From Felis catus (lineage: Eukaryota), in the NCBI RefSeq assembly GCF_018350175.1, contig NC_058368.1, positions 31,994,001 through 32,058,000 on the forward strand: DNA of 64,000 nucleotides, written 5' to 3'. Numbering within the stretch: the stretch's first letter is position 1; each line of letters opens with the position of its first letter. Below, in pieces: positions 1 to 39,795 of this stretch. The notes under the pieces are model-generated. The model searched no databases and had not been told where the DNA came from. It worked only from the letters and a program-made list of their open reading frames with translations. The position numbers were made by a program, and so were the translations under genes.

Positions 1-3000
1 CTGACTATATCATAAGCTATATTGTTGTTTGTTGTTGTTCTTGTTTTGGTGAGTATGTAGTGGAGAAATAAAGACCAGAGATTTTGGGCCGTTTGTTGTT
101 GTGGTTTGCCCCAGCTCTATTACTATCTAATGATGTGACTTTGGATAATTAAAAAACAAAAGTGATTATAAATGCTGTCTGTATCTCTTTGGAATATTTT
201 GAGTATAATGAGACCATTAATACAGAATACTTTGAAACACATACAAATTATAAGGATCCTAAAACTTTCTGTTTCTCACAAGAATTAGTATGGTCTCATT
301 CATATAATAGGTGCTGAGGCAAAGATTGTTGAATAATGGGCAAGAGAAAGGAAAAAGTTATAACCAAACGATACATAATTGACTACTTGAGGTAACTAGG
401 AATGGTCATCATTAGTATGGAGTCCAGAGTCTAGATAGTTTTTGAGATACTGAAATGATATTATATTACTTCCCTAAGTAGCTAACCATCTAAGAACCGG
501 ATCACTATAACTAAACTCAGATGAAATACCCAAATTGCAATTGATTAATAGATCAACCAAAATGCAAATATATTTGCCTGAGACATTATCCTAGTAGATA
601 ACCAAATAAACATACTTGAAGACCAACTCACTCCTTTGCAAGTGTAATTGGGGAGAGGAGAGTTAGATGATCAAAGTGAAACTAGTTTTACTTCATGAAC
701 TTCTTCTCTCCACAAATAAAGAAAGTTTAGACTAGTTCATTGATACTGAGCATTTTATATGTACAAACTCATTCTCTGGTTAAATTCATACTTTTTAAAA
801 CTCTTGCTAATGAGTTACTATAGAGCATCGGTTGATATTTGGTGTAATAGTGCCGCTGAATATGCTTTGATATTTTTTGTTGCTTTGTATCATTCACAAT
901 ACCTATCAAGTCTAATGGCAGCATATCTCAGCTTGATTTCAAGTAGCTGTTGGCCTCTTCAGCAGTATGTACAATGCTATTCATCCTTCTAGGAAAGGCT
1001 ATGATATTGATGGTCAATCACATTGAATGGTAAAATATATCAGTTTTATTAATAGTTTATTAATAGTTTTATTAATGGCATTTCCTGATCTCATTCTAAA
1101 ATTCTGAAGTACTTTGGAATTATGGGACCTGTGGCTTCTGAGGTTGTGAGAACTGCATGAGCTAAGGGATAAAATGTACCATGTTTTCAAAAAGTGTGTA
1201 ATTTGTTGACTGACCATATGTTTTGTCAACATTTCTGGATTGCTATTTTTCACTCAGATATTTGACTCTCTGAACTGATTTGTTTTATAGAAAATTATGA
1301 TTTCAGATTTTCTTCTGCTGCTGCCAAATATATAAAATCAGTGATGCAACATTATTAAAAATCCACATCTTATTTTACCACCAAGTTTCATCCTAAGTTA
1401 CTGACATATCTTGATAATGGATAAGCATATGCAGTCATCCACTGAGCACATAACAAGGCATGAGCTAGATGAGATGTGGCAGGTTACTTTCCACTCTTAA
1501 AATCATATATGACTTTACTAATAGTATTTACCACAGTCTAGATAAATTAGAATTCCCAAGGAAGGGGAAAAAAACAGAGAAAGAAAGAAATTGCTTTGAT
1601 AATGCAAGATAAGGTTACTTGTGGTGGCAGGATTAGACATATCTAGCAAAAGAAACCTAATTATTCCTCCCTGGATCTTTAACTCTGAAGACATGACCAC
1701 AATCCATTCAGATGATAAATAAGGATTTTCAGCCAGGAACCCCAACACATTATTGAAGTAAAATGAATTTGAATGAAGTTTGCTCTTACCTATATTGGAT
1801 TTTTTTCATTTCTTTCTTTCTTTCCTTTTTTTTTTTTTTTCCTTGCCACTACTGGTTTAAAACACAGTTTATTTAGTGTTTCATATAAGATGTGGTCAGA
1901 TATTTAACTTTCTGTTCAGTTCTGTCTATTAGTAAAAAGTCCTTAACAGTGTCAAAAAATAGCAGTTTGAATAGATGTGTGTGACATATCATATACAGAG
2001 TAGAAATTCCAACTTCTTAAGATGGTAACTCTTTCCATTAAATAGAGAAGGCAGGCAAAAATAAAGAACATATGCTTCAATAAGAATAAATAAACCATTT
2101 GGTTAGTGAGTGTGGTTACTAAATGAGAAACCATTCAAATCATTAAACTGTTTCATGATGCTATTGGAAATTATCCTTGCTTAGATATTAAAAGAAGATA
2201 AAGCATGGATTAAATGTTTCATTATGTTCCCTGGCACTCCTCTGGAATTTGCATCAGGTGCAGTTTCATGAAAAATGAAAGTGTCAACCTACTAGATTTA
2301 TTCTATATGCAAAGATGTGTCTATATTTTGATTTTGTAAATGTCTCAAGAATTCATCATAAGATCTCAGTTCTCAAAAATAAAATAAGTCAGTGTTACTG
2401 TCTACTAAATTACAGGAAACTTTATGTATGCTATCTTAAGTAATAGTTACCAAATTAAGGTTAGGATACTATTTCAACATATGACAATAATAATCACATT
2501 TCAAAAAAGTGCCCTGGGACTCAAAAAAGAGTAGGCATTTCATCCAAAGTCATGCATCTTGTGGTTGGCAGAGAAAAATATAGAAACATTTATTCCGGTT
2601 ATATTTTAAAATAATGTTTTTCATAGTACATATAGGCCGCCTCAGACACCCTTGTTCCAACTTATATCTATCCCTTTCTCTCCCACACTCCTTTCTCCCC
2701 TCCCTGTTTTGACCATTGCTTTATCTCTGGCCAGGTCTGATTTATTCCTGGTTCTCATCTTTGGATGTCATACTTTTGCCACTTCAATATTAACTACCGT
2801 ATTGATATGGGCATTTCTGATCTTCAGGAGCAATGCTATTTTTAGTGTGTTCCTTTTTTTTAATTTCAAGTGTAATTGACATATAGTGTATATTAGTTTC
2901 AGGTGTACAATATAATGATTCAACACTTCTATGTATTTCTCAGTTTTTATCAAGATAAGTCTGGTTTTAACCCCCTTATCTATTTCACCCAGCCCCCTCA

Positions 3001-3076
3001 CTTCTCCTCTGGGAAGTGGCAGTTTGTTCTCTGTATTTTGGAGTTTGGGTTTTTTGTTTTTTGGGTTTCATTAATC

Positions 3077-3295
3077 TTTTTTTTTAATTTTTTTTTTAAC
3101 ATTTATTTTTGAGAGACAGAGAGAGACAGCATGAGCAGGGGAGGGGCAGAGAGAAAGGGAGACACAGAATCTGAAGCAGGGTCCAGGCTCCGAGCTGTTG
3201 CACAGAGCCCAACGCAGGGCTCGGACTCACAAACCGGGAGATCATGTCCTGAGCCGAAGTTGGACGCTTAACCGACTGAGCCACCCAGGTGCCCC
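3077..3295 (-). mobile_element. CanSINE (SINEC, felid-type) nested in L1
   Basis: Poly-T tail, GA-rich tract, and tRNA-derived head ending ccacccaggtgcccc; flanks attaatcttttt/attgatcttttt. Confidence 0.95.
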
Positions 3296-3744
3296 ATTGA
3301 TCTTTTTTTAAACTTTGTTTTGTTTCTTAAATTCCACATATGAGCGAAATAATATGGTATTTGTCTTTCTCTGATTGACTTTTTTTTACTTAGCATTATA
3401 CCCTCTAGGTCCATGCATGTTGTCCCAAATGGTATTTTTTATGGCTAATATTCCATCTTCTTTACTCAATAATTTATTGATGGACACTTGTTTTGTTTCC
3501 ATATCTTGGCTATTGTAAAAGATGCTGCAATAAATATTAGGCTGCATATATTTTTTTAAATTATTTTTTTTTCATTTTCCTTAGGTAAATATCTAGTAGT
3601 GAAATTAGTGGATCATATGGTAATTCTCTTTTCAATTTTTTGAGGAACTTCCATACATTTTCTCATAGTGGCTGTACCAATTTGCATTGCTACCAACAGA
3701 CTGTGGAGGCTTCTTTTTTTCTACGTCCTCACCAGAACTTATTT

Positions 3745-3826
3745 CTTTTTTTTTTTTTTGTATTTTATTTTATTTTATTTTATTTTATTTTATTTTATTT
3801 TATTTTATTTTATTTATTTTATTTTA
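3745..3826. repeat. Poly-T / (TTTTA)n simple repeat
   Basis: Directly visible tandem tattt units. Confidence 0.9.
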
Positions 3827-4989
3827 ACCATTCTGACAGGTGTAAAGTGATACCTAATTGTGGTTTTGATTTTCATTTCCCATATGACTAGTGATATTGA
3901 CCATCTTTTCCTGTGTCTGTTGGCTAACTATATGTCCTCTTTAGAAAAATGTCTATTCAGCTTCCCTGTCCATTTTTAATTGGATTATTTGGGCTTTTTT
4001 GATGTTGAGTTGTAGAAGTTCTTTACATAGTTTGGATATTAACCTCTTATCAGACATATCATTTGCAAATATCTTCTCCCATTCACTAGGTTGCCTTTTT
4101 GCTTTGTTAATGATTTCCTTCACTGTGAAGAAGCTTTTTATTTTGGTATAGTCCCAATAGTTTAATTTTGCATTCATATCCTTTGCCAGAGGGGGCATAT
4201 CTAGAAAGATGTTTCTAAAGCCAATGTCAAAGAAATTACTGCCTATCTTTTCTTCTAGGAATTTCATGGTTTCACGTCTCAAATTAAGTCTTTAATCCAT
4301 TTTGAGTTTATTTTTGTGTATGGTGTAAAAAAGTGGTCTAGTTTTATTCTTTTGCATGTAGCTGTCCAGCTTTCCCAACACCATTTGTTAAACAGACTGT
4401 CCTTTTCCCATTAGATTTTCTCTCCTGCTTTGTCATAGATTAATTAACCATAAAAACATGGATTTATTTCTGGACTCTATTCTGTTCCGTTGAACTATTT
4501 GTGTTTTTGCTACTACCATAACTGTTTTCATTACTGCAGCTTCAGAGCATATTTTGAAATTTGAGATCGTGATACCTCCAGCTTTGTTCTTCTTTTTCAG
4601 ATTGCTTTGGGTATTCAGGGTCTTTTGTGGTTCCATACAAATTTTGGGATTATTTGTTCTAGTACTGTGAAAAATGTTTTTGGTATTTTGATAGAGATTG
4701 TATTAAATCTGGAGATTGTTTTGGGTAATATGGACATTTTAGCAATATTGGTTCTCTCTAGGAGCAATGGTTAAACCCTTGCTTCTGAAATCCCAGATCC
4801 CTCACCTGATGCTCTTTGCTTTGGGGGATTCTACTTGGATGGAGGCTTTGGGTGTACGTGTTATATCGTAACTACTTGATGCCCTGTGACTCGGTTCTGG
4901 ACACTTAAATTAACAAAAGTTCACTAATGGAGATTAGAGAAACCTGTTGTTCTCTTAATTAAAAGTTAAAGTTCTTAATAGACATTGAC

Positions 4990-29187: not shown

Positions 29188-30515
29188 TAAGAAATTAAAT
29201 CCTTACTAGTCTTGGTGATATGTTTGTGGATCTGACTCCAAAACAGGGGAAACAAAATAAAAAATAAGCAAATGGGACTACATCAAACTAAAAACCTTCT
29301 ATGCAATGAAGGAATTTATCATCCAAATGAAAAGACAACTTACTAAATGGAAGAAGATATTTTCAAATATACCTAATAAGGCATTAATATTCAAAATATG
29401 TAAAGAACTCATACAGTCCAACAATTAAAAAAATATCCAGTCAAAACTGGGCAGATGATCTGAACATTTTTCTTTTTTTTTTTAATCTTCATTTATTTAT
29501 TTTGAGAGAAGGAGAGCACAGGTTAAGGAGAGACAGAGAGAGATTCCTAAGCAAGTTCAGTGCTGTCAGTGCAGAGCCCAAGGTGGGGCTTGATCTCATG
29601 AACTGAGATCATGACCTGAGCGAAAATTAGGAGTCAGACTGGGCCAACCAGGTGCCCCTGAGAAGACATTTTTTCAAAGAAACAAAAGATGGCCAACAGG
29701 CTCATGAAAAGATGTTCAACATCACTAATTATTAGGGAGATAATGAATCAAAACCATAATGAGAGTATCAGCTCATACCTTTTAGAAATGCTGTTATCAA
29801 AAAGACAAGAAGTAACAAGTGTTGAAGAGGACGTGGAGAAAAGGGAATGCTTGTACACTATTAGTGGCAATGTAAATTGATGTAGCCAATATTGATGATA
29901 GTAAGGAGATTCCTCAAAAAATTAAGAATGTATCTACCAATTACCCAGCTATTACCCTTCTCAGTATTTATCCAAAGAATATGAAAACAGTAATTCAAGA
30001 ACATATATGCACCCCTATGTTTATTGCAGCATTATCTATAATATATTGCCAAGATATGAAAACAACCTAAGTGTCCATTGACAGATGAATAGATGAAGAG
30101 GATGTAGAATATATGTAATATATATACTATATATATTTATAAAACAAAATACTATTCACTTATAGAAAAAGAATGAACTCTTGTAATTTATGACAACTCT
30201 GTACCTTGAGGGTGTTATATTAAGTGAAGTAAGTCACAGGGGGATATCAAATACTTCATGATTTCACTCATGTGGAATTGAAAAAAAAACAAAACATAAC
30301 AAAAACAAACACATAGATACAGAGAACAAATTGATGGCTACCAGAAGGAAAGGGAATTAGAGGATGGGCAAAAAAAGGTGAAGCGGTCAAAAGGTGGAGC
30401 TATGGTGATAGTAACTAGAATTTTGGTGGGGATCACTTCGTAGTGCATACAGATGCCCAATTATAATGTTGTACATCTGAAATATTATATTTCAGATTTT
30501 ACCTCAATTAAAAAA
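29188..30515 (+). mobile_element. 5'-truncated L1 (3' ORF2 remnant + 3' UTR), interrupted by a CanSINE
   Basis: aaatgggactacatcaaactaaaa; ORF 29689..29880 (MANRLMKRCSTSLIIRE) matches L1 ORF2; 3' UTR ends ctcaattaaaaaa. Confidence 0.9.
29473..29658 (-). mobile_element. CanSINE nested in L1
   Basis: Poly-T tail, gagatcatgacctgagc, head ending ccaggtgcccc. Confidence 0.9.
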
Positions 30516-33554: not shown

Positions 33555-33611
33555 TAGTTACTAAGAGTGTTGTCTCTGAAGTCAAACTGCCCCATTTAAA
33601 ATCTTGGTTGT
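33555..33611 (+). mobile_element. MIR 5' part (split by the L1)
   Basis: taagagtgttgtctctgaagtcaaactgcc...aaatc continues after the L1 as gccactg...ttaacttctct...gtttc...tctgtgaaattgggat. Confidence 0.7.
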
Positions 33612-34542
33612 CCCGGAATCAGGGAAGATGGCGGCGTAGGAGGATGCTGGGCCCACCGCGCGTCCTGCTGATCACTTAGATTCCACCTACACCTGCCTAA
33701 ATAACCCAGAAAACCACCAGAGGATTAGCAGAACAGAGTCGCCGGAGCCAAGCGCAGACGAGAGGCCCAAGGAAGAGGGTAGGAAGGGCGGCAAGGCGGT
33801 GCGCGCTCCACAGACTGGTGGGAGGGAGCCGGGGCTGAGGGGCGGCTCGCTGGCCAAGCAGAACCCCCGAGTCTGGCTTGCAAAAGCGGAGGGGCCTGAC
33901 GGACTGTGTTCCAACAGCAAGCGCGACTTAGCATCTGGGAGGTCATAAGTTAACAGCTCTGCTCGGAAAGCGGGAAGGCTGGAGGACAAAGGGAGGGAGA
34001 GCTGCTGAGCCCCCTGACTACAGAGCTCAGTTTGGTGGGGAACAAAGGCGCTCACCAGCGCCATCTCCCCCGCCCATCCCCCAGCCAAAATCCCAAAGAG
34101 AACCAGTTCCTGCCAGGGAACTTGCTCGCTCCGCGCAAACACCCAACTCTGTGCTTCTGCAGAGCCAAACCTCTGGCAGCGGATCTGACTCCCTCCCGCT
34201 GCCACAGGGCCCCTCCTGAAGTGGATCACCTAAGGAGAAGAGAGCTAAGCCTGCCCCTCCTGCCCCCGTGCACCTTGCCTACCCACCCCAGCTAATACGC
34301 CAGATCCCCAGCATCACAAGCCTGGCAGTGTGCAAGTAGCCCAGACGGGCCACACCACCCCACAGTGAATCCCGCCCCTAGGAGAGGGGAAGAGAAGGCA
34401 CACACCAGACTGACTATGGCCCCAGCGGTGGGCTGAGGGTAGACATCAGGTCTGACTGCGGCCCTGCCCACCAACTCCAGTTATACACCACAGCACAGGG
34501 AAAGTGCCCTGCAGGTCCTCACCACGCCAGGGACTATCCAGA
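33612..34542 (+). promoter_or_regulatory. L1 5' UTR internal promoter with YY1 motif
   Basis: CpG-rich island-like segment. AAGATGGCGG at 33625-33634 matches the YY1 site found near L1 5' ends. Confidence 0.8.
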
Positions 34543-35427
34543 ATGACCAAGCAGAAGAATTCCCCTCAGAAGAATCTTCAGGAAATAACAGCTAATGAGC
34601 TGATCAAAAAGGATTTAAATAATAGAAAGTGAATTTAGAATAATAGTCATAAAATTAATCACTGGGCTTGAAAACAGTATAGAGGACGCAGAGAATCTCT
34701 TGCTACAGAGATCAAGGGACTAAGGAACAGTCACGAGGAGCTGAAAAATGCTTTAAATGAAATGCAAAACAAAATGGAAACCACCACGGATCGGATTGAA
34801 GAGGCAGAGGAGAGAATAGGTGAACTAGAAGATAAAGTTATGGAAAAAGAGGAAGCTGAGAAAAAGAGAGATCAAAAAATCCAGGAGTATGAGGGGAAAA
34901 TTAGAGAACTAAGTGATACACTAAAAAGAAATAATATACGCATAATTGGTATCCCAGAGGAGGAAGAGAGAGGGAAAGGTGCTGAAGGGGTACTTGAAGA
35001 AATAATAGCTGAGAACTTCCCTGAACTGGGGAAGGAAAAAGGCATTGAAATCCAAGAGGCACAGAGAACTCCCTTCAGACGTAACTTGAATCGATCTTCT
35101 GCACGACATATCATAGTAAAACTGGCAAAATACAAGGATAAAGAGAAAATTCTGAAAGCAACAAGGGGTAAACGTGCCCTCACATATAAAGGGAGACCTA
35201 TAAGACTCGTGACTGATCTCTCTTTTGAAACTTGGCAGGCCAGAAAGAATTGGCACGAGATTTTCCGGGTGCTAGACAGAAAAAATATGCAGCCGAGAAT
35301 CCTTTATCCAGCAAGTCTGTCATTTAGAATAGAAGGAGAGATAAAGGTCTTCCCAAACAAACAAAAACTGAAGGAATTTGTCACCACTAAACCAGCCCTA
35401 CAAGAGATCCTAAGGGGGACCCTGTGA
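34543..35427 (+). pseudogene. ORF1: L1 ORF1p (coiled coil, RRM, CTD), frameshifted near the N-terminus
   Basis: ATG at 34543 (MTKQKNSPQKNLQE). Apparent frameshifts near 34625 and 34688. ORF 34762..35427 has NIRIIGIPEEE, ENFP, IQEAQR, DLSFETWQAR and YPA motifs. Confidence 0.92.
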
Positions 35428-35477
35428 GACAAAGTCCCAGAGACATCACTACAAGCATAAAACATTCAGACATCACA

Positions 35478-38143
35478 ATGACTCTAAACCCGTATCTTTC
35501 TATAATAACACTGAATGTAAATGGATTAAACGCGCCAACCAAAAGACATAGGGTATCAGAATGGATAAAAAAACAAGACCCATCTATTTGCTGTCTACAA
35601 GAGACTCATTTTAGACCTGAGGACACCTTTAGATTGAGAGTGAGGGGATGGAGAACTATTTATCATGCGACTGGAAGCCAAAAGAAAGCTGGAGTAGCCA
35701 TACTTATATCAGACAAAATAGACTTTAAATTAAAGGCTGTAATAAGTGATGAAGAAGGACATTATATAATAGTTACAGTGTCTATCCATCAGGAAGAGCT
35801 AACGATTATAAATGTCTATGCGCCGAATACCAGAGCCCCCAAATATATAAAACAATTACTTATAAACATAAGCAACCTTATTGATAAGAATGTGGTAATT
35901 GCAGGGGACTTTAACACCCCACTTACAGAAATGGATAGATCATCTAGACACACGGTCAATAAAGAAACAAGGGCCCTGAATGAGACATTGGATCAGATGG
36001 ACTTGACAGATATATTTAGAACTCTGCATCCCAAAGCAACAGAATATACTTTCTTCTCGAGTGCACATGGAACATTCTCCAAGATACATCATATACTGGG
36101 TCACAAAACAGCCCTTCATAAGTTTACAAGAATTGAAATTATACCATGCATACTTTCAGACCACAATGCTATGAAGCTTGAAATCAACCACAGGAAAAAG
36201 TCTGGAAAACCTCCAAAAGCATGGAGGTTAAAGAACACCCTACTAACGAATGAGTGGGTCAACCAGGCAATTAGAGAAGAAATTAAAAAAATATATGGAA
36301 ACAAACGAAAATGAAAATACAACAATCCAAATGCTTTGGGACGCAGCGAAGGCAGTCCTCAGAGGAAAATACATTGCAATCCAGGCCTATCTCAAGAAAC
36401 AAGAAGAATCCCAAATACAAAATCTAACAGCACACCTAAAGGAACTAGAAGCAGAACAACAAAGGCAGCCTAAACCCAGCAGAAGAAGAGAAATAATAAA
36501 GATCAGAGCAGAAATAAACAATATAGAATCTAAAAAAACTGTAGAGCAGATCAACGAAACCAAGAGTTGGTTTTTTGAAAAAATAAACAAAATTGATAAA
36601 CCTCTAGCCAGGCTTCTCAAAAAGAAAAGGGAGATGACCCAAATAGATAAAATCATGAATGAAAATGGAATTATTACAACCAATCCCTCAGAGATACAAA
36701 CAATTATCAGGGAATACTATGAAAAATTATATGCCAACAAATTGGACAACCTGGAAGAAATGGACAAATTCCTGAACACCCACACTCTTCCAAAACTCAA
36801 TCAGGAGGAAATAGAAAGCTTTCTTCTCGAAACTAGAACAAGCAATCCTAAAATTCATATGGAACCACAAAAGGCCCCGAATAGCCAAAGGAATTTTGAA
36901 GAAGAAGACCAAATTGGGAGGCATCACAATCCCAGACTTTAGCCTCTACTACAAAGCTGTCATCATCAAGACAGCATGGTATTGGCACAAAAACAGACAC
37001 AAAGACCAATGGAATAGAATAGAAACCCCAGAACTAGACCCACAAACGTATGGCCAACTCATCTTTGACAAAGCAGGAAAGAACATCCAATGGAAAAAAG
37101 ACAGCCTCTTTAACAAATGGTGCTGGGAGAACTGGACAGCAACATGCAGAAGGTTGAAACTAGACCACTTTCTCACACCATTCACAAAAATAAAGTCAAA
37201 ATGGATAAAGGACCTAAATGTGAGACAGGAAACCATCAAAACCTTAGAGGAGAAAGCAGGAAAAGACCTCTCTGACCTCAGCCGTAGCAATCTCTTACTC
37301 GACACATCCCCAAAGGCAAGGGAATTAAAAGCAAAAGTGAATTACTGGGACCTTATGAAGATAAAAAGCTTCTGCACAGCAAAGGAAACAACCAACAAAA
37401 CTAAAAGGCAACCAACGGAATGGGAAAAGATATTCGCAAATGACATATCGGACAAAGGGATAGTATCCAAAATCTATAAAGAGCTCACCAAACTCCACAC
37501 CCGAAAAACAAATAACCCAGTGAAGAAATGGGCAGAAAACATGAATAGACACTTCTCTAAAGAAGACATCCGGATGGCCAACAGGCACATGAAAAGATGT
37601 TCAGCGTCGCTCCTTATCAGGGAAATACAAATCAAAACCACACTCAGGTATTACCTCACGCCAGTCAGAGTGGCCAAAATGAACAAATCAGTTGACTATA
37701 GATGCTAGAGAGGATGTGGAGAAACGGGAACCCTCTTGCACTGTTGGTGGGAATGCAAATTGGTGCAGCCGCTCTGGAAAGCAGTGTGGAGGTTCCTCAG
37801 AAAATTAAAAGTAGACCTACCCTATGACCCAGCAATAGCACTGCTAGGAATTTATCCAAGGGATACAGGAGTACTGATGCATAGGGGCATTTGTACCCCA
37901 ATGTTCATAGCAGCACTCTCAACAATAGCCAAATTATGGAAAGAGCCTAAATGTCCATCAACTGATGAATGGATAAAGAAATTGTGGTTTATATACACAA
38001 TGGAATACTATGTGGCAATGAGAAAAAATGAAATACGGCCTTTTGTAGTAACGTGGATGGAACTGGAGAGTGTGATGCTAAGTGAAATAAGCCATACAGA
38101 GAAAGACAGATACCACATGGTTTCACTCTTATGTGGATCCTGA
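35478..38143 (+). pseudogene. ORF2: L1 ORF2p: endonuclease, partial linker and C-terminal Cys-rich region; RT domain absent
   Basis: Endonuclease motifs LNVNGLN, CLQETH, GDFNTPL and SDH are present. Frameshift in the A-run near 36285-36291, out-of-frame junction near 36820, TAG at 37706-37708 in the CCHC motif, end HMVSLLCGS*. Confidence 0.95.
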
Positions 38144-38473
38144 GAAACTTAACAGGAACCCATGGGGGAGGGGAAGGAAAAAAAAAAAAAAGAGGTTAGA
38201 GTGGGAGAGAGCCAAAGCATAAGAGACTGTTAAAAACTGAGAACAAACTGAGGGTTGATGGGGGGTGGGAGGGAGGAGAGGGTGGGTGATGGGTATTGAG
38301 GAGGGCACCTTTTGGGATGAGCACTGGGTGTTGTATGGAAACCAATTTGTCAATAAATTTCATATATAAAAAAAATAAAGACATAATCAGAAAAAAATAA
38401 ATAAATGTTTGTTGTTTAAGCAAAAAAATAAGTAAATAAAAAATAAAATAAAATAAAATAAAATCTTGGTTGT

Positions 38474-38887: not shown

Positions 38888-39112
38888 ATTTATATTTTTT
38901 TATTTTTTTAATGTTTATTTATTTTTTGAAAGAAGAGACCGAGTGTGAGCAGGGGAGGGGAAGAGAGAGAGAGGGAAACACAGAATCTGAAACAGGCTCC
39001 AGGCTCTGAGCTGTCAGCATAGAGCCTGATGTGGGGCTCGAACTCACAAGCTGTGAGATCATGACCTGAGCCGAAGTCAGATACTTAACTGACTGAGCCA
39101 CCCAAGCGCCCC
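38888..39112 (-). mobile_element. CanSINE
   Basis: Head ending ccacccaagcgcccc; flanks taaaatcaattt/taaaattaattt. Confidence 0.95.
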
Positions 39113-39795
39113 TAAAATTAATTTTTGAAGCATACAGTTCAATTAGTCATAATGCCAGGACATTCGGTCATTAGGGAGATGAAAGGAAAAGAAAATTTTA
39201 AAAGCTTAGAACAAGGTACAAGAGTCAGTGAACTACAAATGGTCATCTTTTGCCTTCCACAGCTGTTACTTCATTATGATCATAATAACTATAATGCTGA
39301 CACCTGAGGGTTTTAATTTAATAAATAAGATGCTACAACTACCTCTGATTCCTAAAGAAATGACAATGATTTCTAGTCAAATTTAAATAGTGTCATTGAA
39401 ATAAGTTGCATCTTCAGAATGATGGCCGATGTGTTAAAGAACTAAATATTTAAAGACCCGAATTATTTTAGTAGTTTGGTTTTGTGCCCAATACACACTA
39501 TACATATATAACCACTGTATATTGCACTTAGTCTTTTTATTTTAACTAATCAGTGGTGTGATGGCCAAAGTTCCCAAAGCAAACAAACAAACAAATAAAC
39601 AAACAAAACCCAGTTAAATCAGCAAACATGTCCATAAATTCCATGTTCCTTGAATATGCAGGTGCTTATTAAGTGTAGTAATATTAGATGTTAATGATAA
39701 TGATCATAGTTCTCTCAAGGATTCACAGTCAGTGGGAATGCATGATCACAATGGACAAGTCCATTTAGGTTTATTCACAACTCAGAATTTAGGAA

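Follow-up and report, generated by a model that had tools for sequence, protein, structure and literature searches.

In PMC13192797, internal deletion is counted among the normal forms of L1 decay, and internally deleted copies form a class that is set aside in Table 1 of PMC2912911. HAL1 elements are described as non-autonomous L1 derivatives which encode ORF1p only (PMC5753468, PMC13756887). The SpIREs, as PMC5860796 reports them, derive from spliced RNA with splice sites in the 5' UTR or in the 5' UTR and ORF1, and they are recurrent. Outside mammals, the R2 SIDEs of Drosophila are short, internally deleted elements whose copies show signs of propagation by target-primed reverse transcription (PMC3414825).

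Here, we describe an L1 of Felis catus which lies on the plus strand at 33612-38459 of a 64-kb window of NC_058368.1 (the whole stretch of DNA that was analyzed), is 5'-complete and A-tailed, and lacks the reverse transcriptase (RT) of ORF2. It is of the same kind as the decayed full-length mammalian L1s with internal deletions, being a single copy with intact termini and target site duplication (TSD), loss of coding sequence, frameshifts, and stops; the loss here happens to span the whole RT. Like HAL1, it is L1-derived and has no working ORF2, but whereas HAL1 elements are multi-copy and encode ORF1p, there is one copy here, its ORF1 is broken, and most of its ORF2 is kept. It resembles the SpIREs in being a full-length-looking L1 with an internal deletion, unable to move again in cis, and differs from them in that the deletion lies in ORF2, is without splice ends, and is unique. 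With the R2 SIDEs, it shares its nature as a non-LTR element and the retention of both ends after internal deletion; unlike them, it is a single copy without propagation. The event is of an already known kind: the genome has thousands of related L1s, and this is a dead one from which an internal segment is missing. Had an RT-less L1 family that kept most of ORF2 been replicating, it would have stood out against L1 cis-preference as a notable exception; it is excluded here by a genome-wide count, and the literature we searched yielded no RT-less felid L1 family, which is consistent with none existing and is no proof of it. The unique junction might be used as a locus marker or as a data point on the timing of internal L1 deletions.

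Architecture of the element and extent of the loss

The element has the features of a mammalian L1: ORF1 with RBD-like domains, an APE endonuclease and a C-terminal region in ORF2, and an A-tail and TSD at a T/A-rich site (Table 1). L1 endonuclease prefers sites of the TT/AAAA type. Both TSD copies and the complete 5' UTR were located, confirming the preliminary description of a 5'-complete L1 with a perfect 14-bp TSD, which extends to 15 bp if a shared T is counted. The copy has ∼10 extra nt ahead of the start which it shares with relatives (∼33622), and the YY1 site that had been called intact was found as a core which we take to be of the YY1 type.

Table 1. Features of the L1 and its flanks, in window coordinates
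Feature	Position	Strand	Remarks
5' TSD copy, 14 bp	33598..33611	+	T-run just before it, as expected for an L1 endonuclease site
5' UTR, complete	33612..34542	+	best relatives 96% identical
Presumed YY1-type core	33625	+	motif within 5' UTR
ORF1, broken	34543..35427	+	frameshifted against relatives; Pfam domains in downstream frame
ORF2 5' part with endonuclease	35478..36314	+	+1 frameshift at ∼36285
ORF2 linker region, second frame	36247..36816	+	human aa 265-449; last residues LNQEEIES
Deletion junction, 1,160 nt lost	36817..36822	+	aa 448-834 of relative L043, whole RT
ORF2 3' part, third frame	36823..38143	+	human aa 835-1274; TAG at 37706-37708
3' UTR and first A-rich tail	38144..38379	+	
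∼40 nt of non-L1 sequence with AATAAA signal	38380..38421	+	between two A-tails
Final A-rich tail	38422..38459	+	decaying into TAAAA repeats
3' TSD copy	38460..38473	+	

The ORF2 pieces align to human ORF2p residues 5-275, 265-449, 835-1130, and 1132-1274, and none of them matches residues 450-834. Relative to the open 1,274-aa ORF2 of a copy in the same genome (L043), the absent stretch includes the FADD at 699 and the entire Pfam RVT_1 match (516-772); RVT_1 was found in this relative and in none of the five window peptides scanned with Pfam. Measured against most relatives, the gap amounts to 1,160 nt, the reading frame differs across it, and 2.67 kb of ORF2 sequence is kept. The missing piece was not displaced nearby, as blastn gave no match to it elsewhere in the 64-kb window. 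These measurements agree with the preliminary description, which had put the loss at ∼385 codons (∼1.15 kb) including all of the RT and had noted an out-of-frame jump: the peptide before the junction ends at human residue 449, and the one after it starts at 835.

Besides the loss of the RT, the element is dead in several ways. When compared with seven young relatives, ORF1 carries changes of −3 at 34586, −5 at 34623, and −1 at 34687 and meets a stop after 29 codons; its downstream frame matches Pfam Transposase_22 (PF02994) and Tnp_22_dsRBD (PF17490) above cut-off. In the 5' part of ORF2, the endonuclease is recognized as a PF03372 match, and alignment to human ORF2p places a His opposite Asp205, a residue which we take to be catalytic. 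A 1-nt insertion shifts the frame and leads to a stop at 36314, meaning that ORF2 is not in one unbroken frame between the endonuclease and LNQEEIES as had been proposed; the linker does end in LNQEEIES as described; the 3' part is interrupted by a further stop (Table 1). Lacking RVT_1 and bearing frameshifts and a stop, the copy does not have the open ORF1 and the RT-containing ORF2 of an autonomous L1. Substitutions relative to the majority state of the seven young relatives were found at 71 of 4,705 columns (1.5%).

The junction and its counterparts across the genome

A 29-mer spanning the junction, searched with up to three mismatches, had one match in the 2.43-Gb genome, at this locus. 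Equally long patterns from the two arms next to the junction, searched with the same tolerance, matched 4,233 times (left) and 6,685 times (right), so the search was sensitive and the denominator large. When 101 nt of junction DNA was used as the query, a match across the junction was again seen at this locus only, among 40 scored of 44 candidates.

We compared the junction with the corresponding region of related copies chosen in two ways. Among 29 relatives fetched from the 101-nt search, 25 have both arms, spaced 1,121-1,179 nt wider than here; three of the other four do not extend as far as the left arm in the sequence fetched, and one has a SINE replacing part of ORF2. The second set was picked without regard to the junction and consisted of the 20 copies with the most similar 5' UTRs. 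All 20 of these close relatives keep the RT region: 19 are longer by 1,158-1,161 nt at the junction (FADD is present in 18 of the 19, and the stretch is stop-free in 13), and in the 20th, the alignment runs unbroken into the RT region. On contig C1, 44 of the first 100 exact left-arm matches had a proper exact right-arm partner, the other 56 being outside the count, and 42 of these pairs are spaced 1,153-1,195 nt, one is spaced 1,410 nt, and this locus alone is spaced 30 nt; a pairing at 6,725 nt was left out because it joins two different elements. Two copies with an identical spacing of 1,173 nt have their deletions at different places, and other copies carry unrelated deletions of ∼12-141 nt. 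Since other copies show unrelated deletions as well as the SINE replacement, we regard internal loss as a normal fate in this lineage.

Three of the copies deserve separate mention. The one with the SINE (L048, G000:C10:28566400-28573400) is a 5'-complete older L1 in which, at 2982-3211 of the locus, a ∼228-nt SINE replaces 1,011 nt of ORF2 (∼aa 274-612) without a duplication, likely a SINE-associated deletion; a second SINE, with a duplication, lies 450 nt further on. A young L1 inside an older L1 (L013, G000:C46:37908123-37911173) is 5'-truncated at position 1551 of the locus, a few bases from the right breakpoint. This is probably a chance coincidence, because a copy of this form was favored by the search, and about two truncations per base are to be expected from the arm counts. 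At 4947-5299 of L036 (G000:C21:49863100-49870100), an L1 3'-end fragment which is 98.9% identical to a young copy is nested in the ORF1 of an older L1.

Origin of the deletion

One explanation offered in the preliminary description was that the locus is a copy of a replicating, RT-less, non-autonomous subfamily mobilized in trans, in the manner of HAL1; the SIDEs would be a second model for it. Both termini, the promoter region, and the perfect TSD would suit such an origin, and families of this sort are known from mammals, in HAL1 (PMC5753468), and from Drosophila, in the R2 SIDEs (PMC3414825). A subfamily is recognized by many dispersed copies with the same internal structure, however, and we found one junction against thousands of arms, even though any daughter copy longer than ∼1.6 kb would include it; moreover, ORF1, which HAL1 encodes, is broken here, and the 3' tail is common to no other copy beyond 12 nt. 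A replicating RT-less family is therefore rejected for this genome assembly, and we give the subfamily reading a negligible probability. Because the break is found at one spot in the genome, we see ordinary decay rather than a new family, and the result which the preliminary description had named as refuting the subfamily, a junction confined to this locus, is the one that the genome search gave; of the origins proposed there, the one-off deletion is supported. A less sweeping version, in which the copy is a rare survivor of a small RT-less lineage moved in trans, with its source and sisters polymorphic and absent from this assembly, is very improbable. Hardly better placed is a lone copy, mobilized in trans, of a source RNA that already carried the deletion, where the source has been lost or is missing from the assembly. 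By sequence alone, such a copy would look the same as one deleted during its own insertion, and PMC5860796 reports that defective (spliced) L1 RNA is mobilized in trans at a low level; against it, no source or sibling carries the junction, and L1 proteins prefer their own RNA according to the same paper. We consider it very improbable.

An assembly or consensus error which joined two distant L1 parts is similarly improbable. L1 copies are hard to assemble, and the left breakpoint lies within a HindIII site, which the preliminary description had flagged as a cue to an artifact. That cue is weak, as AAGCTT is missing from the right breakpoint of every relative examined. With 71 contigs, the assembly reaches chromosome scale, and the window is without N; the two halves of the element are about equally diverged from the seven young relatives on either side of the junction (1.05% and 1.29%), and in separate trees, the left and right halves group with the same set of young relatives, their finer placement being poorly supported. 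Repeat collapse would also usually be expected to join homologous positions rather than sites separated by 1.16 kb. As for a retrotransposed spliced L1 mRNA, SpIRE-like, from which the RT region was removed as an intron, the preliminary description had proposed weighing microhomology against GT-AG splicing at the breakpoints. We tested 11 registers, of which seven lie within one mismatch of the junction, and found no GT-AG, GC-AG, or AT-AC ends at any of the seven on either strand. Recurrence at several loci would further be expected of a spliced form, whereas the junction is single-copy, and we find this origin scarcely credible.

We conclude, with a probability of about 0.9, that the locus is a one-off 1,160-nt deletion in a single, normally inserted L1 copy which has since decayed. 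The inserted RNA would have been full-length and from the young L1 lineage of this genome, and it would have been inserted by ordinary target-primed reverse transcription, as the observed 5' end, A-tail, and TSD indicate in the light of established L1 biology. A single event removed 1,160 nt of ORF2 between two weakly similar sites, AGCTT and AGCAT, taking the RT and shifting the frame. The copy went on to decay as a dead L1, with no offspring carrying the junction in this genome.

The breakpoints themselves were examined for homology. In all 19 of the nearest relatives, the left site is AAGCTTGA and the right site is AGCATTCTT, which gives AGCTT versus AGCAT (four of five positions matching) and an exact overlap of 1 nt. 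With either of two minority haplotypes, which the 101-nt junction search enriched, the exact homology would be 2 or 5 nt; among random position pairs, 49% share at least 1 nt and 1.0% share at least 5 nt. The haplotypes at the two sites (L002-L030, L052-L071) are TTG/CAT, the majority, TTT/CAT, and TTG/CTT, and neither of the two rarer ones forms a clade, both being spread over young as well as old copies. The AGC/AGCTT microhomology suggested earlier is thus perfect in a minority haplotype and imperfect in the closest relatives. As the majority haplotype offers a 1-nt overlap and typing did not assign the parent to one haplotype, we go no further than calling microhomology at the breakpoints plausible.

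For the deletion itself, the most likely route, at slightly better than even odds, is that a break which arose after insertion was repaired by end joining. Loss during insertion, either by the RT skipping along its own RNA or by repair of the cDNA, has a smaller though appreciable likelihood. Microhomology-mediated joining and template switching are reported at L1 insertion junctions (PMC11702581; bioRxiv 10.1101/2024.08.27.596794). Since the internal deletions described in the bioRxiv study are short and linked to inversions, we take it as an analogy and not as a precedent for a collinear loss of 1.16 kb. A skip guided by a hairpin was tried and rejected, as pairing between the two ends of the lost segment is less stable than in 98% of 300 random pairs. 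A chimera of two subfamilies was likewise set aside, since the two junction haplotypes picked up by the 101-nt search are not separate lineages (five weak diagnostic sites, split three to two) and both halves of the element group with the same young copies.

The 3' tail and neighboring repeats

The non-L1 sequence between the two A-tails lies inside the TSD and ends 16 nt after its AATAAA; it is probably a short 3' transduction. When this genome was searched for its source, no locus had more than 12 nt of it following an L1 tail. The last 30 nt match a locus on contig C11 (L073), where the same words precede an A-run; these 30 nt, we presume, resemble the end of a MaLR LTR. This locus was rejected as the source, with only old L1 fragments (70-86% identity) nearby. 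Another candidate (L074), an RT-bearing full-size L1, has 12 nt in common after its A-tail and agrees at 3 of 79 derived sites, and the agreement was treated as chance.

The window contains further repeats. Two older, truncated L1 fragments lie at 3316-4761 (minus strand) and 29231-30237 (plus strand) and are 66-74% identical to the young element in the blastn-aligned parts. On the minus strand at ∼38905-39115, 450 nt after the L1, there is an element which we take to be SINE-like.
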